NCBI GenBank assembly: GCA_003345545.1
Contig: PRDH01000039.1
Location: forward strand, 1 to 64,000
Direction: 5' to 3'
DNA: 64,000 nt
From: Candidatus Thorarchaeota archaeon
Lineage (GTDB): Archaea; Asgardarchaeota; Thorarchaeia; Thorarchaeales; Thorarchaeaceae
Shown in pieces: positions 13,775-24,978 of this stretch (its first letter is position 1; each line of letters starts with the position of its first letter). The notes under the pieces are model-generated. The model made no database searches. It worked only from the letters and a program-made list of their open reading frames with translations, and was not told where the DNA came from. Made by a program: the position numbers and the translations under genes.

Positions 13775-14191
13775 TTACTGTACCTTCCGCAAGACGACCC
13801 TGGATACTCCGGGAATCTTCTTTAGACTCTCTTCGAGTTCGTTGAGTGTTACAACCAGCTGATCTGGGATGAAGTAACATTCATAGTAGCAGCGCTCACC
13901 ACGCAGGCAAACTCCAGTCGTGAAGATTATGTCGCTTAGTTTGGCATCGTTGAACGCGAAGTTCAACTGCTTCAAGAAGTTCCGAGAGAGATCGCTGATC
14001 TCGATTCTCAGCAGATAGATATCCTCGCTAGCGACAGGGAATAGCTTTACGACCTTATCCTTGTGATGCAGCACTGTCAATGCGGCTTTCTCCCCGATGT
14101 CAGCTACGAATTCGGCTGGAAACTCCACTGGTTTCCCAGCAGTCAATCTCAAAATAATGGCAGATGTCGCGCCTTCCTTATCCAATACCAA
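13775..14191 (-). CDS. Putative regulator with AbrB-like N-terminus and ACT-like C-terminus
   Basis: C-terminal LRIEISD...ELEESLKKIPGVSRVVL is ACT-like; N-terminal beta-rich segment. Confidence 0.55.
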   Translation of the reverse strand: MVLDKEGATSAIILRLTAGKPVEFPAEFVADIGEKAALTVLHHKDKVVKLFPVASEDIYLLRIEISDLSRNFLKQLNFAFNDAKLSDIIFTTGVCLRGERCYYECYFIPDQLVVTLNELEESLKKIPGVSRVVLRKVQ

Positions 14192-14399: not shown

Positions 14400-15110
14400 T
14401 TGAATTCTCGTCTGTCACAACTCTTGGGTATCATTCTTGTAGTCATCAGTGGTGCAATGACTCTGTTAGTCTATCAGGTAGTACGTACCATGCCTGAAGA
14501 TGATGTGCTTGTCCTTGTTACCTCTGGATTAGCATCGTGGGGTATTCTTGCTTTGCCTGAATTGATAATTGGGCTCTGGCTGATTCTAAGAGGAACTCAT
14601 GAGGCACGGATTGGCGATGTTTCAGGTGACCTCATTCCACTTGTTCAGCGAGAGGGACGAATCGGTGTTGCAGCAGCCGCACGAGAACTTGGTGCTGACC
14701 CCGAGGCTGTGGCCGATGCTGCAGAGAAGCTCTCTCGACGGCGACTCCCTCTTGTATACCTCGACCGACAGTCTTCGGAGATAGTCAGTCCAAGCTCTGT
14801 ATCATTGGAAGAGAGCCTTCTCCACCTGCTCTATGCACAGCGGAGAATGACCTTCGACCAAGTGTCCAAAGTGACGAATTCCACTGATGCCCAGATCATT
14901 GAAGCAGTCGCCAAGCTGACACAGCGTGGAAAGTTCAGAGGGACGGTTGATCGCAATTCGCGCGTAATCTATACGCAGGAGGCTGTTTCACAGCTTCGAA
15001 AGGCAGTGACGTCATGTCCCAATTGCTCAGGAAAGCTAGAAGCGCCGGTCCTACCCGGTGAAGAAGAGACTTGCCCGTACTGCGGCCACATGATCACGAA
15101 TAATGCATAG
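14400..15110 (+). CDS. 2-TM protein with tandem winged-helix (PCI-like) domains and C-terminal Zn ribbon
   Basis: Two N-terminal TMs; FDQVSK...KLTQRGKFRGTVDRNSRVIY; CPNC...CPYC. Confidence 0.7.
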   Translation: MNSRLSQLLGIILVVISGAMTLLVYQVVRTMPEDDVLVLVTSGLASWGILALPELIIGLWLILRGTHEARIGDVSGDLIPLVQREGRIGVAAAARELGADPEAVADAAEKLSRRRLPLVYLDRQSSEIVSPSSVSLEESLLHLLYAQRRMTFDQVSKVTNSTDAQIIEAVAKLTQRGKFRGTVDRNSRVIYTQEAVSQLRKAVTSCPNCSGKLEAPVLPGEEETCPYCGHMITNNA

Positions 15111-15161: not shown

Positions 15162-16283
15162 TCACATCATTCTCCATGTCTCTGAACACTTGTCCCCTCT
15201 TACAACAACATATTCGCTGAACAAGCTCGCAGAGAGGCATGAGTGATTCGGCAGTATTCGCACAAGCATCTTTGGAGAGAAGCTGATGTCTGCCTGTCTA
15301 GTTAGGGCAATCCTCCCATGCTCCTGTGAAAGCGAATCGAGGATAATCCCGTTCGCCAATCTGTTCTCATCGTAACCAGTAAAAACCTGACCAAAGCCAC
15401 ATTTCGGATTGATATGAACAGGGCCAATATCTTTTGAGAGAGCAGTAGCTCCTGCATCTATCACAATTCTATCTGGGTAAGTGCCAATTATACTTGCTAG
15501 GACGGTGAATGCACAATCACTCACTTTACACGTGCCAAGCGCCACTTGTGTATAGTCGAAAAATACGTAATTGCCAGGACGAATCTCAGTTATCTCCTCA
15601 TCGAATGAATCAGCAAGTACGACAGTAGGTGTTGATCCAATACTTACAATTTCTGGAGGGACCCTCTCTCTCCTCAAGGTCTTGGCGAACCGCGCCATCA
15701 CCTCTTGCTCCTGCTGTGCAATCCTCTTTATCTCATCAACGCTCTTCGCGTTGTAGGAATGCCCTGCATGAGTCAAAATGCCCTTGAATCTTAGATTGGA
15801 GTTTTCATTGATCTTCTTCACAAGACTCACTGCAGTATTGCTGGCGGGTTCTACACCACACCGGTGAAGGCCACAGTCGACTTTCACCATGACATCTAGC
15901 TCAGTCTGAGCTACTTGGCTAGATGCATCTAAGTCATCGACTATACGTGGATCATCGACTATGACCTTCAGAGATATTCTTGATGCAAGCTCCAGAGCCT
16001 TTGGAATCTTGTTCCTCGATATAGGGACTGCATATGTGATATCTTCAAACCCGGAATCAGCAAAGACCTCGGCTTCCCGCAGAGTGGAAACAGTAATCCC
16101 CTTGGCACCCTTGTCGATCTGCATCTTGCCAATCTCTACGCACTTATGCGTCTTAATGTGCGGGCGCAGATTGACATTGTTGTCTCTGGCAATCTCTGCC
16201 ATCCCATCGATATTTGTTTTGAGCCTCTTGTAGTCCAAGAGAGCAACTGGTGTCATCAGACGTGAGAATTGCTCCATTGACAT
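15162..16283 (-). CDS. DSD1 / D-threonine aldolase family PLP enzyme (fold type III)
   Basis: RPHIKTHK, HAGH, GSTPT, RPGNYVFFD, SQEHG, PNHSC. Confidence 0.9.
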   Translation of the reverse strand: MSMEQFSRLMTPVALLDYKRLKTNIDGMAEIARDNNVNLRPHIKTHKCVEIGKMQIDKGAKGITVSTLREAEVFADSGFEDITYAVPISRNKIPKALELASRISLKVIVDDPRIVDDLDASSQVAQTELDVMVKVDCGLHRCGVEPASNTAVSLVKKINENSNLRFKGILTHAGHSYNAKSVDEIKRIAQQEQEVMARFAKTLRRERVPPEIVSIGSTPTVVLADSFDEEITEIRPGNYVFFDYTQVALGTCKVSDCAFTVLASIIGTYPDRIVIDAGATALSKDIGPVHINPKCGFGQVFTGYDENRLANGIILDSLSQEHGRIALTRQADISFSPKMLVRILPNHSCLSASLFSEYVVVRGDKCSETWRMM

Positions 16284-16388: not shown

Positions 16389-16892
16389 TTGGATACGATT
16401 CCGAAAATTCTCATTCAAATGCTTGAACGTGAGAGCGCTCAGGCTCGATCTGTTCTCTCTGCAGCCGAAGGTATAGATCCTCATTATGTCCCTTGCAGTG
16501 GCATAAGACCTCTAGAGGATTTGGCGAATCACCTTGCTCAAATCCCAATCATTGATTACAAATTCTATACTACTAAGGAATTCAGTTCGTTCGAACAGGT
16601 CCATACCTTCGAAAAAGAGCTCAGGCGTTCAGCAATTGGAGACCTGCTTATAGTGTTCGATGAGGGCGTTGCGACAATCGTAAAACATCTGAAACGTCTG
16701 TCAGATGAGAGCGTCCTGAAGAAAGACTTGAAAGCATTTTACGAACAGGGCCCTAAGAAGAGCTGGGCTCAGTGCGCCCCTGAAATCACCACACATATCG
16801 CGATGCATAAAATGCAGCTCTGGATGTATCTCAAGATGGCTGGAGCTCCAGTGAGTATGTGGACCTATTATGGCATGTCCGAAAGCAAGTAG
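16389..16892 (+). CDS. DinB/YfiT-like metalloprotein
   Basis: LANHLA and THIAMHKMQLWMYLKMAG His motifs. Confidence 0.8.
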   Translation: MDTIPKILIQMLERESAQARSVLSAAEGIDPHYVPCSGIRPLEDLANHLAQIPIIDYKFYTTKEFSSFEQVHTFEKELRRSAIGDLLIVFDEGVATIVKHLKRLSDESVLKKDLKAFYEQGPKKSWAQCAPEITTHIAMHKMQLWMYLKMAGAPVSMWTYYGMSESK

Positions 16893-16898
16893 ATCTAA

Positions 16899-18323
16899 CT
16901 AGGTTATGCCATGTTGGTCCCCTCGTATTCGACGACTTAGATTCAACCTGACTTCAGCAATCCTCTCTGCTGCTCGGCTCTTCTTCGGCCAGAACTCCCT
17001 GATCTCATCGAAGCCATGTACATCCCAATAGAGCGGGCATGCTCCGTAGCAATACGCGAAGTGTTCGCACTCCTTGCACCCCTGAGGCGCGAAATCCTTG
17101 CCTCTCCAGAACCTGCTCGCCCTATTGTACCATACCTTCTCAAATCCTTCATTCAGGAGGTTTCCAACAGGTTCGCTGAAACTTGAACACGGCAGTAGAC
17201 CGCCTTCGGCATCCACTGAGATGAGACCATCACAACACGCACAGCTCTTGGCTCCCAGTCCACTTGCGATTGGGTTGAAGAGACAGACTGGAGTAGGCGC
17301 GTACCATACGAATTGAATTCCCTTCTTGCTTGCCCTGTGCTTCACGCGTTTCACGATCTCCGCGATTTCGGAGTATTTGATCTGCAACTCCTCGCGCAAC
17401 AATGCGGCAGTGCCCGTGTAGATCACCATATTCATGCTGAAGTATGAGAGGTTCAATTCATCAGCCAAAAAATCGACAAGGTCTTCTAGTCTGTCAAGAT
17501 TCGGACGGCAGATGGTTGAGTTGCAGTGAGTATAGATGTCTGTTTCTCGCAGGTTCTTGACTCCCTGAATCGTCTGTTCGAATGCGCCGGGAACACTGAC
17601 GATATGATCGTGTGTCTTTGCATCTGGACCTTCAATTGAGACCTGTGCACTGTTCAGACCCGCATCAACGAGCTTTTTCACAAACTCCTTGTCGCTGCAT
17701 CGCCGGCCATTTGTAATTAGATTGACTCGGAGCCCTTTCGTTCTCCCATACGCGATCAACTCGAACAGATCATCGCGGAGGGTGGGCTCACCTCCCGTAA
17801 AGGAGAGACTGGGCGCCTTAGCGTCATCCGCTATGATATCGATGACTCTCTTTACTTCCTCTGTTGTCATCTCATTTGTTTTTCTGTAGGGTGAGAAAGC
17901 ATAGCAGAACCTGCAGGCATTGTTGCAGCGATAGGTAAGAGCAATCTCACTCAGGACAGGGTACTTGATTTCATGCGTCCCGAATGGTACGATTTTGGCA
18001 GTCTTGTATGAGTAGATATTCTGATTTCCTGAAACCATGTTTCTCAGGTCATCTACAAATGAGGCCAGGTCATTCAGAACTACCTGTCTATCAGCGCCTA
18101 GGTCGACAAAATGGCTGACGAGCTCCTCGATGCTCTTACCCTCGAAGAGAAGCCTCAGCATCCGCATGGCTGTCTCGTTCAGGTTCATGACCTTGTTCGG
18201 TCGCAGGATCAAAAGATTGTCCTCGGGCCGCGGATAGAAGTAGTCCTTGACTTCTAGTATGAACTCAGGAATCCAAGCGAGGTCCTCAATGGCGTAGTCA
18301 TAGTGCGGAATCTGTTGAGACAC
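16899..18323 (-). CDS. Radical SAM/SPASM peptide maturase with N-terminal PqqD/RRE-like domain
   Basis: CNNACRFC, TGGEP, ITNG; SPASM SCACCDG..G.LLPC...CKEC.....C...CP; N-terminal LNETAMRMLRLLFEGKSIEELVSHF..DLASFVDDL is PqqD-like. Confidence 0.92.
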   Translation of the reverse strand: MSQQIPHYDYAIEDLAWIPEFILEVKDYFYPRPEDNLLILRPNKVMNLNETAMRMLRLLFEGKSIEELVSHFVDLGADRQVVLNDLASFVDDLRNMVSGNQNIYSYKTAKIVPFGTHEIKYPVLSEIALTYRCNNACRFCYAFSPYRKTNEMTTEEVKRVIDIIADDAKAPSLSFTGGEPTLRDDLFELIAYGRTKGLRVNLITNGRRCSDKEFVKKLVDAGLNSAQVSIEGPDAKTHDHIVSVPGAFEQTIQGVKNLRETDIYTHCNSTICRPNLDRLEDLVDFLADELNLSYFSMNMVIYTGTAALLREELQIKYSEIAEIVKRVKHRASKKGIQFVWYAPTPVCLFNPIASGLGAKSCACCDGLISVDAEGGLLPCSSFSEPVGNLLNEGFEKVWYNRASRFWRGKDFAPQGCKECEHFAYCYGACPLYWDVHGFDEIREFWPKKSRAAERIAEVRLNLSRRIRGDQHGIT

Positions 18324-18354
18324 TTCTATCTCGCTCTCGTTGAGTTCCTATCAT

Positions 18355-18412
18355 CTTAAGCATTCGGTTCTGATGAAGTGCACGCCCAAGAATCTGAAAG
18401 GCTTAAGTATTC
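18355..18412. promoter_or_regulatory. Divergent promoter region with two CTTAAG TATA-like boxes
   Basis: CTTAAGCATTC (18355-18365) and CTTAAGTATTC (18402-18412) in the 122-nt gap between divergent genes. Confidence 0.45.
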
Positions 18413-18445
18413 CCAGTCTTCTGTTAGAATCAGCGTTGTCGAGGA

Positions 18446-18850
18446 GTGTGTTCAATGAGCACAAATGAAATTAAGCTTCCATTTGGTAAAATCAGTCAAA
18501 AGAAGTTGATCATGCATTTCAGCGCATACGATATTGACCTCCCTATCATCGCTGCAGGCATCCGTGAGAGAATGGATGTCTTCCGCGAGCTAGGAGTGGA
18601 GTTTGCTGGGTTTGGAACCGACATCCCCGAGAGTATGTCTGAGCAGTCACCAGCTTTAGTGAAGTGTTTCTTCGAATATGTTGGTGAGGGCGGAGATGCG
18701 AACCTGGTCCTCAAGCGCGTCTACCACCTAGTCTGGGGTGGGATGATTGCGATGTTCCCTGACCTTGAGGAGTGGGCGACAGCTAAAGCTGACCTCTCTA
18801 ATCTGACGCTGGCACAGGCTGAGGTCATTAGAGCAAGGAAAGAGGACTGA
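18446..18850 (+). CDS. Hypothetical soluble protein
   Basis: 134-aa ORF (ATG at 18455 likely); no recognised motif. Confidence 0.75.
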   Translation: MCSMSTNEIKLPFGKISQKKLIMHFSAYDIDLPIIAAGIRERMDVFRELGVEFAGFGTDIPESMSEQSPALVKCFFEYVGEGGDANLVLKRVYHLVWGGMIAMFPDLEEWATAKADLSNLTLAQAEVIRARKED

Positions 18851-18914
18851 AGGAATCAACAACCTAGTGGAAGAGAATGACTAGTAATATGGACTATCAC
18901 TGCGAGGGTGAAAC

Positions 18915-21041
18915 GTGAGGAAGGGTCTAGGAGCGATTCTCCTTGTCTTGGTGCTTGCCTTAGGACTTGTCCCGATAACAGTAGTGGCACATATTCCAAG
19001 TGCCAATCCTAACTTGGACAGTGTATACGTTGATGTCATGGTCTTGCCCAATGGACGGATCAACGTGACGTATTGGATGACATTCACTGCGGCGAGTGGT
19101 GGTCTGGGCGGATTCGATTTTCAAGGAATTCAAGAAACAACTCTTGTTGACACGACACGTGCGTATGCTGAATGGGGTGGGAATCGATACGACCTGATTG
19201 TTGGATATATTTCAGAAGGCTACGCCCTTGACTGGACCCCGAGAACACCCGAAGGGCAGCAGGTGCTTGTCGTATTTGGTTACTTCAGTACAAATCGAGT
19301 AGTCGAAATGACAACATCACCGACCTACGGTGACCTTGGAGTCCTCAATTGGGCTCCTGTTCAATGGTCAATCGCTGTCGATTACGAACAAGTCCAGGTA
19401 ATATATCCCATCGAGGTCAATTCCTCATGGATCGAGCCTTCGCATGGAGTGACTCCTGAGGGCGCCCAGTATGCGGGGTATATCGAAGATGAGAATCAAG
19501 GTCTCTGGCGGGATTCTGCGAAGTATCCATTCGATAATATTGACCTACTTGCTTATCCCTATGACATTGCAGCAAGCCCTCGCTACTTCACTGTCAGTAT
19601 GGACTTTGCGAGCCTAAATGCCTATGACCGCTTCAGAGTTTTTCAATACACGAATTGGACATTCTATGCAGCCTTCGCTGAATCAGGAGCGCTCGACTAC
19701 ACTGTCAGCCCCTTCGTAAATGCACAGGCGGACACTCAGTTCCAACTAGAACTCGATGTCTTCAATTATGGTGACCTGCCGCTCGAGAATGTCACAATCT
19801 TGATGACGCTCCCTGAGAATCTCACGCTTGTGTCGGGATCGGTCTTGACCACGGTGGGCGCCCTGACAGGTGGCGATGTGTGGCGTGAGACCTATTTGTT
19901 CGTTCCTGCCAATGTAGCTGCTGTGCTCACAATCAACTTTCTAATCACTTCTTCGTCATTGAACTCTACCGACTGGCCGTCATTCTCGGTGGATATCTAT
20001 GTTCAGGAGTACATTCCGCCACTTATTCCGCCTTCTTACTGGATATTCATCATAGGCGGTGCATTTGCCCTGGGCATGGTCTACTACGGATATAGAAAAG
20101 TGACAGCATCATATGGTGCGAAGTGGGAGGTTGATGAGACAACCTACACGTATTCCACCCCTGAAATTGCTATACAGACATTTGGAGAGCCGGGCGCCGT
20201 AGCCGATCTTGACCCAATCGAGTCGGCGTTCTTCGTAAACACAACCCGACAAAAACTTGTATCCATGATTATGATGTCATGTGTTCGAAAGGGTGCAATC
20301 AGGGTCCTGTCAACGGATCCGTTGAAGGTTTCCGTTACCGGCCTCCAGTTCGAGGAACTGACGTACTACGAAGAGAAATTCATAGCCAGCATCACGGATG
20401 ATGAGCTGGACCCCGGAAAAATCGATGCAATGCTCGACGAGCTCGCGGACAAGGTCCAAGAGAAGGCCTGGAAAGCTGATTTTGAGGTCACAAAGGAACA
20501 CCATGATGAGATGGTCGAGGGTGCGTGGAGAGAACTGGAGGAAGAGCCCACGCTCGATGGACGTACTGATTACTACTTCAATCAGCAATACCATGACAGT
20601 GGGTGGGCTTGGTACTGGCTATACATGCACCCACGCCATGACACTGACATAGGAAGGGTCTTCAGCAGCCCCGGGACTGCAATCGCTCCGCCGCAAATTC
20701 CTGACTGGTTTTCTGATTTGTCGGCGGCAACCGGCAATGCCGTTTCAAGTGTTGGGCGAGTAGTAGGGGATGTAGCCACGACTACAGGTCAGATTATGAC
20801 AAACGTGACCAACACAATAGGTAGCGTCTTGCAGAGTGTGGGCAATATCATCACCGAGCCTCTGAAGCCACTGATTGAAGGGACAAGTAGATGTGTTTCC
20901 CACGATGCCTGCCACAGTGCTTGTGTTTCCCATGATGCCTGTCATAGCGCCTGTCACAGCGCCTGTCACAGTGCCTGCGTCTGTCATAGCGCCTGTCACA
21001 GCGCATGTCACAGTGCGTGTGTGTCTGGAGGCTTCAGGTAG
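18915..21041 (+). CDS. Signal-peptide, single-pass membrane protein (DUF2207-like architecture) with C-terminal Cys/His repeat tail
   Basis: N-terminal signal, beta-rich ectodomain, TM YWIFIIGGAFALGMVYYGY followed by RK, LDPIESAFF / LTYYEEKF cytoplasmic domain, (CHSA)n tail ending SGGFR. Confidence 0.88.
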   Translation: MRKGLGAILLVLVLALGLVPITVVAHIPSANPNLDSVYVDVMVLPNGRINVTYWMTFTAASGGLGGFDFQGIQETTLVDTTRAYAEWGGNRYDLIVGYISEGYALDWTPRTPEGQQVLVVFGYFSTNRVVEMTTSPTYGDLGVLNWAPVQWSIAVDYEQVQVIYPIEVNSSWIEPSHGVTPEGAQYAGYIEDENQGLWRDSAKYPFDNIDLLAYPYDIAASPRYFTVSMDFASLNAYDRFRVFQYTNWTFYAAFAESGALDYTVSPFVNAQADTQFQLELDVFNYGDLPLENVTILMTLPENLTLVSGSVLTTVGALTGGDVWRETYLFVPANVAAVLTINFLITSSSLNSTDWPSFSVDIYVQEYIPPLIPPSYWIFIIGGAFALGMVYYGYRKVTASYGAKWEVDETTYTYSTPEIAIQTFGEPGAVADLDPIESAFFVNTTRQKLVSMIMMSCVRKGAIRVLSTDPLKVSVTGLQFEELTYYEEKFIASITDDELDPGKIDAMLDELADKVQEKAWKADFEVTKEHHDEMVEGAWRELEEEPTLDGRTDYYFNQQYHDSGWAWYWLYMHPRHDTDIGRVFSSPGTAIAPPQIPDWFSDLSAATGNAVSSVGRVVGDVATTTGQIMTNVTNTIGSVLQSVGNIITEPLKPLIEGTSRCVSHDACHSACVSHDACHSACHSACHSACVCHSACHSACHSACVSGGFR
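20892..21041 (+). repeat. Coding tandem repeat, 12-nt unit encoding CHSA (7 copies) plus two CVSHDA units
   Basis: TGYCAYAGYGCN repeats; 11 Cys and 9 His in 49 aa. Confidence 0.95.
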
Positions 21042-21797
21042 ATGCCAAGACCTCACACAACGATCTTCCATGTCAGTGATGTCCATGTTGGCGAAATTGG
21101 AGTCACGCTCGACGATCTGAGAATGATTCTCGACCGCATTGAGAAAAAAGCAGCGAATGTGTCGTCACCCTTGCTTGTCGTAACAGGTGACCTCACAACT
21201 GAGGGTTTACGCGAGGAGTTCGAAGGCTTCTCATCTGCGCTGCAAGGATTCTCGGTGCCCCACGTTATCATTCCCGGAAATCACGATGAGCGAAACTATG
21301 GTTCAGCAGTCTTCGAGGAGTTCTTTGGAGAACGGTTCAAGACCTATCAGACTGAAAACATCGCAATCTACGCTGCAGACAGTGCAGAGCCTGACAACGA
21401 CGCAGGGCATGTCGGCCGCGTCAAGTATAATGAGATGCGTGATTTCTTCAATAGCTCCAAAGAGAAGGTCCGGATATTTGCACTTCATCACCACTTGGTT
21501 CCGGTGCCGCATACTGGGAGAGAACAGAACGTCGTTGAGGATGCCGGTGACGTATTAGCGGTTCTTGACAATACAAATTGCTCTATGGTTCTAAGTGGCC
21601 ATCGCCATGTTCCTTGGACATGGAAACTCGGTGATATGGTCATCTGCAATACCGGAACTCTTCTCTCAAGGAGAGTGCGAGGCGCGACAACTCAACTATA
21701 CAGTCGAGTCGAATTAACGAAGGAAGAAGCCATCATTAGCCTCTGTTACAAAGATGCTACTGAGCGAGTCTTTGCAAGAGCACCACTCAGGGCCTAG
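21042..21797 (+). CDS. Calcineurin-like metallophosphoesterase (CpdA/Icc-like)
   Basis: SDVH, TGDLT, GNHD, HHH, GHRH; ATG directly follows the upstream TAG. Confidence 0.9.
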   Translation: MPRPHTTIFHVSDVHVGEIGVTLDDLRMILDRIEKKAANVSSPLLVVTGDLTTEGLREEFEGFSSALQGFSVPHVIIPGNHDERNYGSAVFEEFFGERFKTYQTENIAIYAADSAEPDNDAGHVGRVKYNEMRDFFNSSKEKVRIFALHHHLVPVPHTGREQNVVEDAGDVLAVLDNTNCSMVLSGHRHVPWTWKLGDMVICNTGTLLSRRVRGATTQLYSRVELTKEEAIISLCYKDATERVFARAPLRA

Positions 21798-21816: not shown

Positions 21817-22170
21817 CTACAGCTGATTGAAGAACCACACAACATCCACAGAGGTCACATTTGCCAACATGGCAGGCAAACTTACAGCTCCTCTCACTAC
21901 GACTATTGAGTTGAGGGTCGATGCTCCTGCCCAATTTATCAGCACGAAGTTGCTCCCATCAGAAATTGTGATGATGTTCCCTATTCTTAGAGTCACTTCT
22001 CCTTTCACAGCGACCGCAGTGCCAAATGGTACTAGGCCATCATTGATATCATTGATACTGGTAAGTCCAAACAAGCCATCATGCCATGCGATTACGCCCA
22101 CAGCAATGACGACTATTACCACGATGCCAAGAAGAATCTTAGCAGCAGATTTTCCCTTCTTCTTCGTCAT
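21817..22170 (-). CDS. Small membrane-anchored OB-fold-like protein
   Basis: MTKKKGK, then a TM, then VAVKGEV...ISDGS...VVVRG beta pattern; ATG at 22170 preferred. Confidence 0.55.
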   Translation of the reverse strand: MTKKKGKSAAKILLGIVVIVVIAVGVIAWHDGLFGLTSINDINDGLVPFGTAVAVKGEVTLRIGNIITISDGSNFVLINWAGASTLNSIVVVRGAVSLPAMLANVTSVDVVWFFNQL

Positions 22171-22259
22171 ATGGATTCCTATCTTCGCCAGTGCAATCCA
22201 AGATAAAAACCATCTTGAATTGAAGGACAAGTACTAAAGAGGCGAAGGCTCTCGTCTGG

Positions 22260-23495
22260 TTGTTGGTAACTATGGATGTACCCGCGACCTATGCAAGGCT
22301 CTGTGGTGAGGTGTCCCACTTCACAAAGGAGAAGACAGGGACTAGTCTTGTTGATGCGTATTTTGGTCCAGAGGCATTAGACCCCATTCACCAGAGAAAA
22401 GGGAAATCACCAGAGGAGCTGGTCGGTGAAGTCAAATCCCTTATCGATGGGATTCGCGATGAGATTGACTCCCAGCTGAGAGCGGACCATTTGATTGGTG
22501 AGTGCGAATCGATCTGTGTCGTGGTCGAATGGCTTGCGGGAAGGAAAATCCCCTATGCAGACCTTGTACACGATATTTTTCACATTCCAATGAAGAGATT
22601 CTCCGATAGGGCCATCAAAGAGAGAATCGCGGTTCTCGATGATGCACTCACAGGATTTTCCGGTTCGGACCTGCGAGAGCGTGTTGCTTTCTTTGTCAAG
22701 CGAGGCGAAATCACAGGTGCCCAGCTTCAGCACCTCATTGAAGGCGAGCTTCAAACGAAGGCTGCACAAGTCGGTGAGATGTTCAAGAGGAGAATCCATT
22801 CCGTAATGGGAACAGATGTCACTGATAATGGCGTTGAATACCAGACTGTTAGGGGAGCTCCCTGGAGCGGGTACAATTGGTATCAACCCGGTTTCAAATC
22901 AATAAACCAGTTCAATCTTGACGTGACTTTCAATATTGACACGCTGTATGGCGTCATATTTCACGAATACGAACACCATGTTTCAAACCTCTGGCGTGAG
23001 AAGTACTATCGGGAGTCTGGCGATCTTGAACTTGCAGTTGTGCCTCTCCACACGGGAAGGTGCGTTATCTCGGAGGGAACTGCTGACACGGCAAGGGAGT
23101 TTCTGGGTGTCGTCGAGGACAATCCCAATATCAAGATTGCTGAAGCTCTGAACACTCTTCGCAGGATGACCAGCATCAACGCAGCTATCATGCTGAATGA
23201 CAGGGGGAGGACGGTGGATGAAGCTGTGGACTACATGATTGAATATGGATTTAGAACTCCCGAGTCCGCCAGGTCTGCAATAGGGTTCATAAGTCCAAGG
23301 ACTTCCACTGGCGGTCAAAACTTCTGGGCTCCATACATCTTTACCTACTACTTTGGCAAGACAGATTTCGTGCTTCCTGTTTTCAACAAGGCCGCAGGAG
23401 AGGGCGAGCTTACAAGGTTCTTTCAGACCCTGTATCTCAACCCGTACTCCGGTTCCAGTGTGACCTGGAAGCAAGCCTTTGATTGGCTGAATTGA
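22260..23495 (+). CDS. DUF885-like HExxH metallopeptidase-fold protein
   Basis: FHEYEHH, downstream ISEGTA, EAVDYMIEYG, YIFTYYFG. Confidence 0.7.
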   Translation: MLVTMDVPATYARLCGEVSHFTKEKTGTSLVDAYFGPEALDPIHQRKGKSPEELVGEVKSLIDGIRDEIDSQLRADHLIGECESICVVVEWLAGRKIPYADLVHDIFHIPMKRFSDRAIKERIAVLDDALTGFSGSDLRERVAFFVKRGEITGAQLQHLIEGELQTKAAQVGEMFKRRIHSVMGTDVTDNGVEYQTVRGAPWSGYNWYQPGFKSINQFNLDVTFNIDTLYGVIFHEYEHHVSNLWREKYYRESGDLELAVVPLHTGRCVISEGTADTAREFLGVVEDNPNIKIAEALNTLRRMTSINAAIMLNDRGRTVDEAVDYMIEYGFRTPESARSAIGFISPRTSTGGQNFWAPYIFTYYFGKTDFVLPVFNKAAGEGELTRFFQTLYLNPYSGSSVTWKQAFDWLN

Positions 23496-23595: not shown

Positions 23596-24978
23596 TCAGC
23601 TCTGGCCACTTCCCTGTGCTCTGTCGTAGGCGCGGTCGAGCTCCTGAGTCATTGCACTCGGGATGGCAGTTTTACCAGCTATGTCACCCTCTTTCCGCCT
23701 AATGAAGACGTACAGAAGCGTGACATAGACAATGTCGAAGGTTCTTAACACGAGTGCACTTGGAATTGCGGCAAAGACTGTGAACACGATTACTACCAGC
23801 AATGTCGTGAAGATATCTCCTCCAGAATAGATCCAGCCAAAGAGCCCCCCAAATGCTGCAAAGCCAATGAACATCATGAATGCCAACACACTGAATCCCC
23901 AGCGGACTGCAGTTTCCTTGATCATGACATCGACGAAATTCTTTCGCACTAATCCGGCACTTCTCTTGATGGCTTTCGTTGCACTGAGATCTTCCGCCAC
24001 CATTGCTGGTATAGTGAAGTAGTTCACGAGCATCCAGACCCAAGCGATTATCCCTGAGGCAGCTGCTCCAGCCCCTCTGGCAAATACATTGGACGACCTT
24101 CTAGCTACAGCTGAAATGATCAACCTGACGAGTGCTATTATGACGCTCATAATGCTCAAGACAACGAGACCTCCGATGACGCCAAGTGATGCCTTTACGC
24201 CATCTCCGAGGCTCGGATCCTGTCCTCGCATGTAGATGTATGTGATGGCAGAGGTTGTTGAGTAGGCGAAATTGTAGAAGAATATGGTCACGAAGAGGTA
24301 CACCACAATGCCTATGATATAGCCCCAATCCCTTTCTAGGATGAATTCATAATCAGGCGCCAAGACCTGCGGCATGAAGAAGACAATAATACCTGCAAAG
24401 AGCACTGCTGAAACTAGGGTGAAAATCATTGTGAGCAGTGGCGGCACAAAGGTCCCCTTCTCATCAAGCGTGACTTGGCCGGTCAATTTGATGATTTCAC
24501 CAGCTCTCCGGACTCTGTCCTTGAACACTGTAAATAGAAGAACAGTGATGAGTAGTGTAAAGATGCCTGGTATCATGATAGGCCATGCTGTGCCCAATGC
24601 TGCCAAGGGAATCGCTCCGCTAATGACCAGGAATATGACAAGTCCCCAGGTCAGGAGATTCATAACACCTGCACCGATGTAAATGAGAGTCCCTCCCAAT
24701 CGCCTTGCAGCCATTGATGCCCCGAGACCCAAGCCAATGCTCAGAACTATTATGGCGCCGAGCCCCACTGCTAGTAGCCAGAGGTTATCAGCCAAGTAGG
24801 GTGAAATGCTCCCAATAATGCTCGTAATGTCGGCTTCATACACAAGCCATAGATTCCATAGTGCGTACATACCCAATCCAACGAATGCTCCGAACACAAT
24901 CAATAGTCCGGCAATTGCACCCTTATGACTCGGGTATTTCTGCTTCTCATGATAATCGATAAGATCAACACTTGTCAA
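23596..24978 (-). CDS. Multi-pass membrane protein, CTL/SLC44 (PNS1)/DUF6159-like
   Basis: About 10 TM; FKDRVRRAGEIIKLT and WMLVNYFTIPAMVAEDLSATKAIKRSAGLVRKN segments; GGAGG SD. Confidence 0.65.
   Translation of the reverse strand: MTSVDLIDYHEKQKYPSHKGAIAGLLIVFGAFVGLGMYALWNLWLVYEADITSIIGSISPYLADNLWLLAVGLGAIIVLSIGLGLGASMAARRLGGTLIYIGAGVMNLLTWGLVIFLVISGAIPLAALGTAWPIMIPGIFTLLITVLLFTVFKDRVRRAGEIIKLTGQVTLDEKGTFVPPLLTMIFTLVSAVLFAGIIVFFMPQVLAPDYEFILERDWGYIIGIVVYLFVTIFFYNFAYSTTSAITYIYMRGQDPSLGDGVKASLGVIGGLVVLSIMSVIIALVRLIISAVARRSSNVFARGAGAAASGIIAWVWMLVNYFTIPAMVAEDLSATKAIKRSAGLVRKNFVDVMIKETAVRWGFSVLAFMMFIGFAAFGGLFGWIYSGGDIFTTLLVVIVFTVFAAIPSALVLRTFDIVYVTLLYVFIRRKEGDIAGKTAIPSAMTQELDRAYDRAQGSGQS

Follow-up and report, generated by a model that had tools for sequence, protein, structure and literature searches.

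What does a radical S-adenosylmethionine (SAM) enzyme act on when it has the build of a peptide maturase and is encoded beside a large membrane protein that ends in a Cys/His repeat? The question is raised by a locus in contig PRDH01000039.1 (assembly GCA_003345545.1), of which positions 1 to 64,000, a stretch of 64,000 nucleotides hereafter called the window, were analyzed. An original prediction, made from the sequence alone, described here a RiPP recognition element (RRE; RiPP, peptide made on the ribosome and then modified post-translationally)–radical SAM–SPASM enzyme, divergently encoded from a cluster of a small protein, a tailed membrane protein and a metallophosphoesterase, in an Asgard-like archaeon. 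The open reading frames (ORFs) and Pfam matches agree with that description, with the SPASM domain borderline; all four ORFs are found at the positions in Table 1, and the enzyme gene is divergent from the other three, with a gap of 122 nt (18324–18445) between it and the small ORF. The tail also reads as first reported, and sequence comparison identifies the host as a Thorarchaeota-type Asgard archaeon. We propose, with a little less than even confidence, that the enzyme and the membrane protein, here termed the carrier, constitute a two-gene module for the thioether-type modification of a tail that is retained on the protein. What the analysis shows is the pairing of the two genes, its conservation, the selective constraint on the tail and the topology predicted for the carrier.

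The enzyme and carrier genes are conserved as a pair

A scan by pattern, with each species represented by one genome, recovered 80 loci with full-length enzyme orthologs at 40–51% identity. When carriers were grouped by all-against-all BLAST with low-complexity masking over 85 loci, which span the Asgard archaea and about 20 bacterial phyla, one homologous carrier family was found to adjoin the enzyme ortholog in 76 of them. The nine misses comprise four loci with the enzyme at a contig end and five true exceptions, and for four of the latter the tailed gene is found elsewhere in the same genome. The prediction had made the co-occurrence of close homologs of the enzyme with Cys-tailed membrane proteins its own test, and the association extends to the distant orthologs as well. 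Bacterial hosts include Chloroflexota, Planctomycetota, Spirochaetota, Myxococcota, Thermodesulfobacteriota, Acidobacteriota, Verrucomicrobiota, Gemmatimonadota, Calditrichota, Cloacimonadota, Omnitrophota, Sumerlaeota, Hydrogenedentota and Abditibacteriota, with one cultured representative, Desulfobulbus alkaliphilus DSM 24258 (Thermodesulfobacteriota; locus L091); a Heimdallarchaeota and a Thermoproteota bin are the other archaeal hosts in the 80-locus scan. The module is thus present in Asgard archaea, as had been thought, but is not specific to them. Enzyme orthologs are 77–99% identical within the window's genus and 40–51% identical in many bacterial phyla.

The two genes are divergent in Thorarchaeota and form an operon in bacteria, where a tailed ORF of 500–1000 aa lies directly upstream, its stop mostly 0–110 nt before the enzyme gene; they overlap in two genomes (G028, G029). 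Within the genus they are neighbors wherever contigs allow, and both are absent from two members (G003, G012). A hand count over 201 Asgard genomes, with a 172-bit match in G037 treated as a paralog, gave 68 with both genes, 2 with the tailed protein alone, 16 with the enzyme alone and 115 that lack both; as relatedness makes the genomes dependent on each other, these counts are descriptive. Since the joint inheritance of the enzyme and the tailed protein reaches from the Asgard archaea into about 20 bacterial phyla, we consider it probable that the tail is the enzyme's substrate.

Two oddities in host assignment are probably binning or labeling errors in public records: a contig labeled Propionibacteriaceae (L068) has the ORF layout and tailed-protein sequence of an Anaerolineae contig (L067), and the enzymes of two 'Rickettsiales' bins group with those of Myxococcota.

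Selection acts on every residue of the tail

The tail, the last 49 residues of the carrier, holds 11 Cys and 9 His in the order of two CVSHDA-CHSA units, (CHSA)2, CV, (CHSA)3 and CVSGGFR; its coding sequence is itself a 12-nt repeat, though an imperfect one. Its peptide sequence is identical in 21 species of the genus, one Phe-to-Tyr change aside; across these, 22–29 of the 147 bases (15–20%) differ from the window, nearly all synonymously, with synonymous alternatives at every codon. The Ser of the CHSA units is always encoded by AGY and that of the CVSHD units always by TCN. The remainder of the carrier is 67–89% identical within the genus. As the residues are fixed despite synonymous change in the bases, selection acts on the tail peptide residue by residue, with Ser, Ala and Val no exception; the same observation led us to reject the notion of a chance low-complexity run. 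Related tails are present in all bacterial and Asgard relatives of the carrier, and in the 80-locus set they consist of (CH[SD]A)n and, behind it, CVSGGxH, CVSxF or CVSSCAGxF.

The tail was also sought as a free peptide. The prediction had seen no separate small precursor near the enzyme, and indeed no small Cys-rich ORF recurs beside it in the loci examined, while a search of 5.8 billion proteins for free tail-like peptides of 35–112 aa returned only two fragments of 88–102 aa, on contigs of 578 and 728 bp. The short ORFs that cover the tail repeat on both strands of the window (20745–21086, 20851–21006, 20875–21120) are frame artefacts of the repeat. TIGR04117, the model of the CXXX-repeat system, has no match at the window's tail; the sole match in the genome lies elsewhere (14.4 bits; cut-off 50), and 6 of 65 carrier relatives match it weakly (E no better than 0.012).

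Two side observations concern the tail. In one member of the genus (L023; G018:C156) the tailed gene is interrupted by an in-frame TAG 68 codons from its end, leaving the tail as a separate 68-aa frame; a sequencing error, a pseudogene and a natural split are all conceivable. The fragment on the 728-bp contig (P0008) carries a precomputed Pfam accession, PF27846, which appears in no paper found by full-text search; a Pfam model covering the tail or its flank may have been built recently.

An RRE-radical SAM-SPASM enzyme of an unnamed family

The enzyme is a clear member of the radical SAM superfamily by Pfam score and by its CX3CX2C motif (Table 1), the three Cys of which (C133, C137, C140) are invariant in an alignment of 62 orthologs. 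The SPASM subfamily (PF13186/TIGR04085) is marked by a C-terminal extension whose seven or eight Cys serve two auxiliary 4Fe-4S clusters, and the same alignment contains seven invariant auxiliary Cys, at 347, 361, 379, 416, 419, 425 and 429; the SPASM assignment accordingly stands by motif and is borderline by score, the match at residues 364–420 falling 0.2 bits under the cut-off. The PqqD-like RRE scores above its threshold, and the N-terminal region that contains it aligns over its full length with bacterial orthologs. No equivalog in the June 2026 release of NCBIfam comes near its cut-off with the enzyme. The best NCBIfam scores, all far under the cut-offs, are to generic or cofactor enzymes (AhbD, NirJ2, PqqE), with 81 bits to the tetraether lipid synthase Tes; the thio(seleno)oxazole maturase model SbtM is among the weak matches of one ortholog. 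The closest solved structures (range E 1e-19 to 1e-18) are PqqE, followed by the sactisynthase SkfB (E 1.5e-18).

A single-pass carrier with a predicted cytoplasmic tail

An AlphaFold2 model of the carrier, built on 65 homologs (mean predicted local distance difference test score, pLDDT, 82), has a signal/anchor helix at residues 5–24, the ectodomain and a single transmembrane helix, and thereafter a disordered linker, a globular domain at 434–582, two helices and the unstructured tail. Across the family the 15 residues before the transmembrane helix hold on average 1.3 Lys and Arg, as against 3.4 in the 15 after it, and these residues are richer on the C-terminal side in 55 of the 65 members. 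By the positive-inside rule, the C-terminal half of the carrier should therefore be cytoplasmic. The models and this rule together agree with the cytoplasmic tail of the original prediction, which would place it in the same compartment as the enzyme. A crude hydropathy measure flags a second hydrophobic stretch in 15 relatives, which as a second membrane span would put the tail outside the cell; we rejected this since the stretch maps to a helix (445–458) inside the confidently modeled globular domain.

Modeled alone, the globular domain is well predicted (pLDDT 89, pTM 0.87). It superposes on DUF2207/DUF2207_C clusters of the ESM Atlas with TM-scores of 0.66–0.68. Among solved structures its best match by VIA-align is GOLPH3 (3kn1_A; Z 6.3, root-mean-square deviation 4.4 over 160 aligned residues), followed by Vps74 (Z 5.6) and a next best at 3.5. 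The ectodomain has weak Foldseek likeness (TM-scores of 0.2–0.3) to Ost1/ribophorin I and to other beta-sandwich ectodomains. The best matches of both domains, Ost1/ribophorin I of the oligosaccharyltransferase and GOLPH3/Vps74, are proteins of the eukaryotic secretory pathway; given the modest scores and a mostly bacterial family, we make no evolutionary claim from these matches.

A relationship with DUF2207 and TIGR04222 had also been suggested, and it appears to survive only as remote homology, visible in the matches of relatives and in the structural superposition, and not as membership. The window's carrier has no Pfam or NCBIfam match, with none to DUF2207 even at E up to 1 and none to TIGR04222 at E up to 0.1. 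Its relatives reach 23.7 bits with the DUF2207 N domain (PF09972; cut-off 24.4), 13 of 65 match DUF2207_C (PF20990; best E 3.7e-7), and 24 of 65 match TIGR04222 (best 37.4 bits; cut-off 43).

A sister system with (CA)n tails

Other Asgard families code for homologous carriers with tails such as GGGG-CACACA-G-CACACA-GGGR. The enzyme of this (CA)n system is 30–34% identical and is encoded directly downstream of the carrier gene or overlapping it, as at L041 (G025), L042 (G028) and L135–L139 (G089, G102, G161, G168, G191); in the Asgard family f12 the (CA)n-tail genes are unlinked. A census of the 150 best cytoplasmic-domain representatives in a library of 1.8 billion proteins found (CA)n tails in 55, CHxA tails in 22, other Cys-bearing tails in 4, a Gly-rich tail in 1 and 68 fragments without a recognizable tail, making the (CA)n tail commoner than the CHSA-type among these representatives.

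On a maximum-likelihood tree of 62 enzymes, tail type needs 6 changes, against a minimum of 5 and a mean of 32.9 with shuffled labels. Spirochaetota and Acidobacteriota each fall in two enzyme clades, tail type following the enzyme and not the taxonomy of the host. Since the enzyme tree splits by tail type, the enzyme and carrier genes appear to travel and diverge as a unit. The composition of the (CA)n tails, which consist of Cys, Ala and Gly only, further implies that any chemistry common to both systems must use Cys together with backbone or Ala/Gly carbons, and that His is dispensable to it. This favors sulfur-to-alpha-carbon (sactionine-like) links, or a transformation of Cys only, over side-chain links of the PapB/CteB type; the sister system thus narrows the possible chemistry ahead of experiment.

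A proposed protein-modification module and its alternatives

Briefly, we advance the following mechanism. The carrier would be inserted with its beta-rich domain outside and one helix through the membrane, leaving the DUF2207_C-like globular domain on the cytoplasmic side along with the Cys-repeat tail. In that compartment the RRE-radical SAM-SPASM enzyme would dock on the carrier and direct 5'-deoxyadenosyl radical chemistry at the tail. The most likely product would be a series of short intramolecular thioethers, joining Cys sulfurs to nearby carbons; of the chemistries open to such an enzyme, thioether formation is the one that we favor, although we would stop just short of giving it even chances. 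The product would stay on the membrane protein and form a rigid extension, studded with His and possibly able to bind metal; retention of the tail appears more likely than its release. Ectodomain, transmembrane helix and cytoplasmic domain are all conserved along with the tail, which suggests a function of the whole protein. A more speculative extension, which we hold as possible but doubtful, is that a receptor-like protein acquires at its cytoplasmic end a hitherto undescribed, enzyme-made ladder of crosslinks or chelating groups derived from Cys, with one His per rung in the CHSA form, conserved from Asgard archaea into about 20 bacterial phyla and with a (CA)n sister system, and serving perhaps in the sensing or storage of metals, redox state or iron-sulfur clusters.

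Several observations weigh against this proposal. In family f12 all 19 genomes have the enzyme, while the tailed gene was found in only 8, on other contigs, and one Asgard genome listed as 100% complete (G069) has the enzyme with no tailed protein detected. By profile scores the enzyme lies outside every characterized thioether-synthase family: it reaches 57.2 bits with TIGR04463 (rSAM_vs_C_rich, the CrpC family; cut-off 525), over the core only, 85.8 with the PapB ranthipeptide maturases (NF047865; cut-off 340) and 100 with the sactipeptide maturase StsB (NF045574; cut-off 625), while AlbA (NF012164; cut-off 850) is matched by orthologs only, at 72–93 bits. A chemistry shared with the (CA)n system, if there is one, excludes on compositional grounds the Asp, Glu and Thr side chains used by PapB or CteB. 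Finally, Cys/His-rich repeats can bind metals or iron-sulfur clusters without any modification.

The best of the competing explanations, though in our estimate an unlikely one, keeps the tail as the substrate and changes the chemistry: Cys residues would be converted into metal-chelating or redox groups, covalently building a metal site on the membrane protein. The options range from heterocycles, such as the thiooxazoles made in bufferins by MNIO enzymes (oxidative enzymes that depend on multinuclear non-heme iron), to epimerized residues and oxidized or desulfurized Cys. It draws on the high Cys and His content of the tail, on the appearance of SbtM among the weak matches of an ortholog, and on the carrier's remote kinship with TIGR04222 proteins, whose tails are proposed MNIO substrates (PMC12452194); the lack of the usual thioether acceptor side chains in the (CA)n tails likewise speaks for it. 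However, His is absent from the sister clade, most characterized RRE-SPASM enzymes that act on Cys-rich cores make thioethers (PMC13692751, PMC5682303), and the 85 loci share no conserved gene for a cyclodehydratase, an MNIO enzyme or an oxidoreductase.

We regard as improbable a second alternative, in which the tail is no substrate at all but binds metals or iron-sulfur clusters, or docks the enzyme at the membrane, while the enzyme itself acts on something else, be it a lipid, a cofactor or a different protein. In its favor, metal ligands are classically found in Cys/His repeats, cofactor enzymes give the highest of the enzyme's NCBIfam scores and Tes a further one, and the genes are unlinked in f12. 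Yet those scores are all far under their cut-offs, the enzyme bears a PqqD-type peptide-recognition domain above the Pfam threshold, its clades co-vary with the type of tail sequence, and the invariance of Ser, Ala and Val goes beyond the needs of metal ligation. Least probable, and very unlikely in our view, is that the carrier is a tethered precursor whose modified tail is cleaved and set free as a RiPP-like peptide: its architecture does resemble a very long leader and core, and a 411-aa neighbor with an HEXXH motif in Thorarchaeota could be a metalloprotease, but that protein is limited to Thorarchaeota and matches no family, no protease, transporter or exporter is conserved across the 85 loci, a cytoplasmic location offers no route outward, and the other domains of the carrier are conserved together with the tail.

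Relationship to known systems

Enzymatic thioether formation on the tail of the carrier, as proposed above, has its nearest precedent, of a different family, in CrpC of Methanococcus voltae, which installs ranthionine crosslinks on the 28.8-kDa Cys-repeat protein CrpA (PMC13692751, September 2026). CrpC has seven auxiliary Cys, and its three-Cys AuxI cluster could bind substrate Cys (PMC13692751). Both systems are archaeal small gene clusters in which an enzyme with an RRE, a radical SAM core and a seven-Cys SPASM region is paired with a protein bearing C-terminal Cys repeats. They differ in enzyme family (57 bits against a cut-off of 525) and in the paired protein: CrpA is soluble with 17-residue repeats and C-X-X-Q/D motifs, whereas the carrier, a single-pass membrane protein of 708 aa, has a four-residue repeat, and its module is found in about 20 bacterial phyla. 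CteB is built like CrpC and the enzyme of the window, with an RRE and auxiliary Cys. More generally, the order RRE–radical SAM–SPASM and the closely spaced Cys of the presumed target are shared with SkfB, AlbA, CteB/SCIFF and the PapB/freyrasin maturases. The substrates of the sactipeptide and ranthipeptide maturases, however, are leader peptides of 40–60 residues that are processed and exported, in contrast to a module without protease or transporter. The locus also departs from the canonical RiPP pathway, with its short leader-and-core precursor, leader protease and export: what is presumed to be the substrate is the terminal part of a membrane protein of 708 aa, it has no free small homolog save two fragments, and no protease or transporter is conserved.

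On the carrier side, MNIO enzymes have been proposed to modify the Cys-bearing tails of TIGR04222 membrane proteins (PMC12452194). The parallel comprises a related membrane protein, a low-complexity Cys-bearing C-terminal tail and a genetic link to a Cys-modifying enzyme of RiPP type, and in both cases the whole protein as substrate is only a proposal. The enzymes are different, a non-heme iron MNIO there and a radical SAM enzyme here, as are the tails, which in the TIGR04222 proteins are Ser/Gly-rich with scattered Cys and predicted to be periplasmic, while the one considered here is a strict repeat predicted to be cytoplasmic; in addition, the window's carrier falls under the TIGR04222 cut-off. 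The CXXX-repeat system (TIGR04117) likewise couples a tandem four-residue Cys repeat to a radical SAM maturase, but its targets are small proteins (model length 98) and not the tails of membrane proteins. Lastly, the carrier recapitulates the layout of DUF2207 proteins (PF09972 with PF20990), namely signal/anchor, beta-rich ectodomain, transmembrane helix, helical C-terminal domain and low-complexity tail, although canonical DUF2207 proteins are not known to have Cys repeats or to pair with a radical SAM enzyme. The function of DUF2207 proteins is unknown (PMC10457818).

We found no published description of modification by this pair. Full-text literature searches returned nothing on the repeat 'CHSACHSAC' or on DUF2207 combined with radical SAM, and no model in the Pfam copy searched or in NCBIfam (June 2026 release) covers the pair or either partner. 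Nearly all known substrates of radical SAM/SPASM maturases are short peptides that are exported, CrpC/CrpA being the first proven case of a full protein; if our proposal is true, their chemistry extends to a large membrane protein and its cytoplasmic tail, and the widespread and unexplained DUF2207/TIGR04222 membrane proteins with odd low-complexity tails gain a first functional handle. The invariance of the tail, the wide distribution of the module and a carrier in a cultured organism make it directly testable.

Features of the locus and neighboring genes

Table 1. Genes and gene parts of the locus, in window positions. Scores are Pfam bit scores with cut-offs; pLDDT values are from the AlphaFold2 model.
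Feature	Positions	Strand	Remarks
RRE-radical SAM-SPASM enzyme, 474 aa	16899–18323	-	Pfam PqqD, Radical_SAM, Fer4_12, SPASM; unnamed family
PqqD-like RRE, residues 39–95	18039–18209	-	PF05402 30.9 bits, cut-off 23.4
Radical SAM core, residues 129–286	17466–17939	-	PF04055 97.5 bits, cut-off 29.5; CX3CX2C = C133, C137, C140
SPASM/auxiliary-cluster region, residues 347–430	17034–17285	-	PF13186 21.3 bits, cut-off 21.5; seven invariant Cys
Small soluble protein, 131 aa from ATG 18455	18455–18850	+	ORF opens at GTG 18446 (134 aa)
Cys/His-tailed single-pass membrane protein (carrier), 708 aa	18915–21041	+	Remotely DUF2207/TIGR04222-like
Carrier, beta-rich ectodomain, residues 32–364	19008–20006	+	pLDDT mostly >90
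Carrier, transmembrane helix, residues 373–399	20031–20111	+	Helix in AlphaFold2 model
Carrier, globular cytoplasmic domain, residues 434–582	20214–20660	+	DUF2207_C-like, GOLPH3/Vps74-like fold (predicted model)
Carrier, Cys/His repeat tail, residues 660–708, presumed substrate	20892–21038	+	pLDDT <50
Metallophosphoesterase, 251 aa	21042–21797	+	Calcineurin-like; PF00149 58.6 bits, cut-off 21.5
Membrane-anchored winged-helix and zinc-ribbon protein, 236 aa, tentative additional component	14400–15110	+	Weak Pfam matches

The genes around the pair differ in how closely they keep to it. The small protein, whose probable start is ATG 18455 in keeping with the annotation of its homologs, had been read as part of the cluster, and it is present in all Thorarchaeota loci; elsewhere a copy (37–41% identical) lies directly upstream of the tailed gene at two bacterial loci (L069, L103), which makes it a lineage-restricted accessory of the module. 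It has 496 homologs, all unnamed, no Pfam or NCBIfam match, and no usable match in a protein-atlas search. The metallophosphoesterase, whose ATG abuts the TAG stop of the tailed gene, fared less well as a cluster member: of the 12 other Thorarchaeota loci only 6 have it beside the tailed gene, and none of the bacterial loci does, so that it is probably a variable neighbor and not a core part.

The protein at 14400–15110, with sub-threshold helix-turn-helix and zinc-ribbon Pfam matches and no NCBIfam match, keeps its position in 8 Thorarchaeota loci. Its possible counterpart emerges from the bacterial loci, in about 30 of which the radical SAM gene is followed by a protein of about 400 aa without family match (e.g., L058:7371–8567); the next gene, in a BLAST cluster of 24 loci, codes for a protein of about 165 aa with a transmembrane helix, a winged helix and a zinc ribbon (e.g., L058:8589–9077). 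This suggests a four-gene operon in bacteria. A hidden Markov model (HMM) of the latter gene matches 34 of the 85 loci, Asgard loci included, and matches the 14400–15110 protein at E 2e-4, a weak likeness that may stem largely from CPxCG motifs in the sequence. In G025 and G168, too, the gene directly upstream of the tailed one codes for a protein with a transmembrane helix and a zinc ribbon. An HMM was also made of a bacterial gene of about 415 aa downstream of the radical SAM gene; its matches inside the radical SAM gene, including one in the window, are artefacts and were discarded, the underlying cluster being contaminated by ORFs overlapping the radical SAM gene.

Two genes downstream of the tailed gene, the HEXXH neighbor (411 aa; 22260–23495, + strand) is a cytoplasmic protein with an HEYEH motif, by which it may be a metalloprotease. 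It is kept in 8 Thorarchaeota loci, is absent from bacterial loci, has no Pfam or NCBIfam family, and proved on comparison to be unrelated to the bacterial gene of about 415 aa. Pfam and NCBIfam likewise return nothing for the neighbors at 21817–22230, 16389–16892, 13775–14191 and 23596–24978. Just downstream of the radical SAM gene, at 15162–16283 on the minus strand, lies a gene for a pyridoxal phosphate enzyme resembling the N-terminal domain of alanine racemase and D-serine dehydratase (PF01168, PF14031), which stands beside the radical SAM gene in 8 Thorarchaeota loci and in one bacterial locus (L084).

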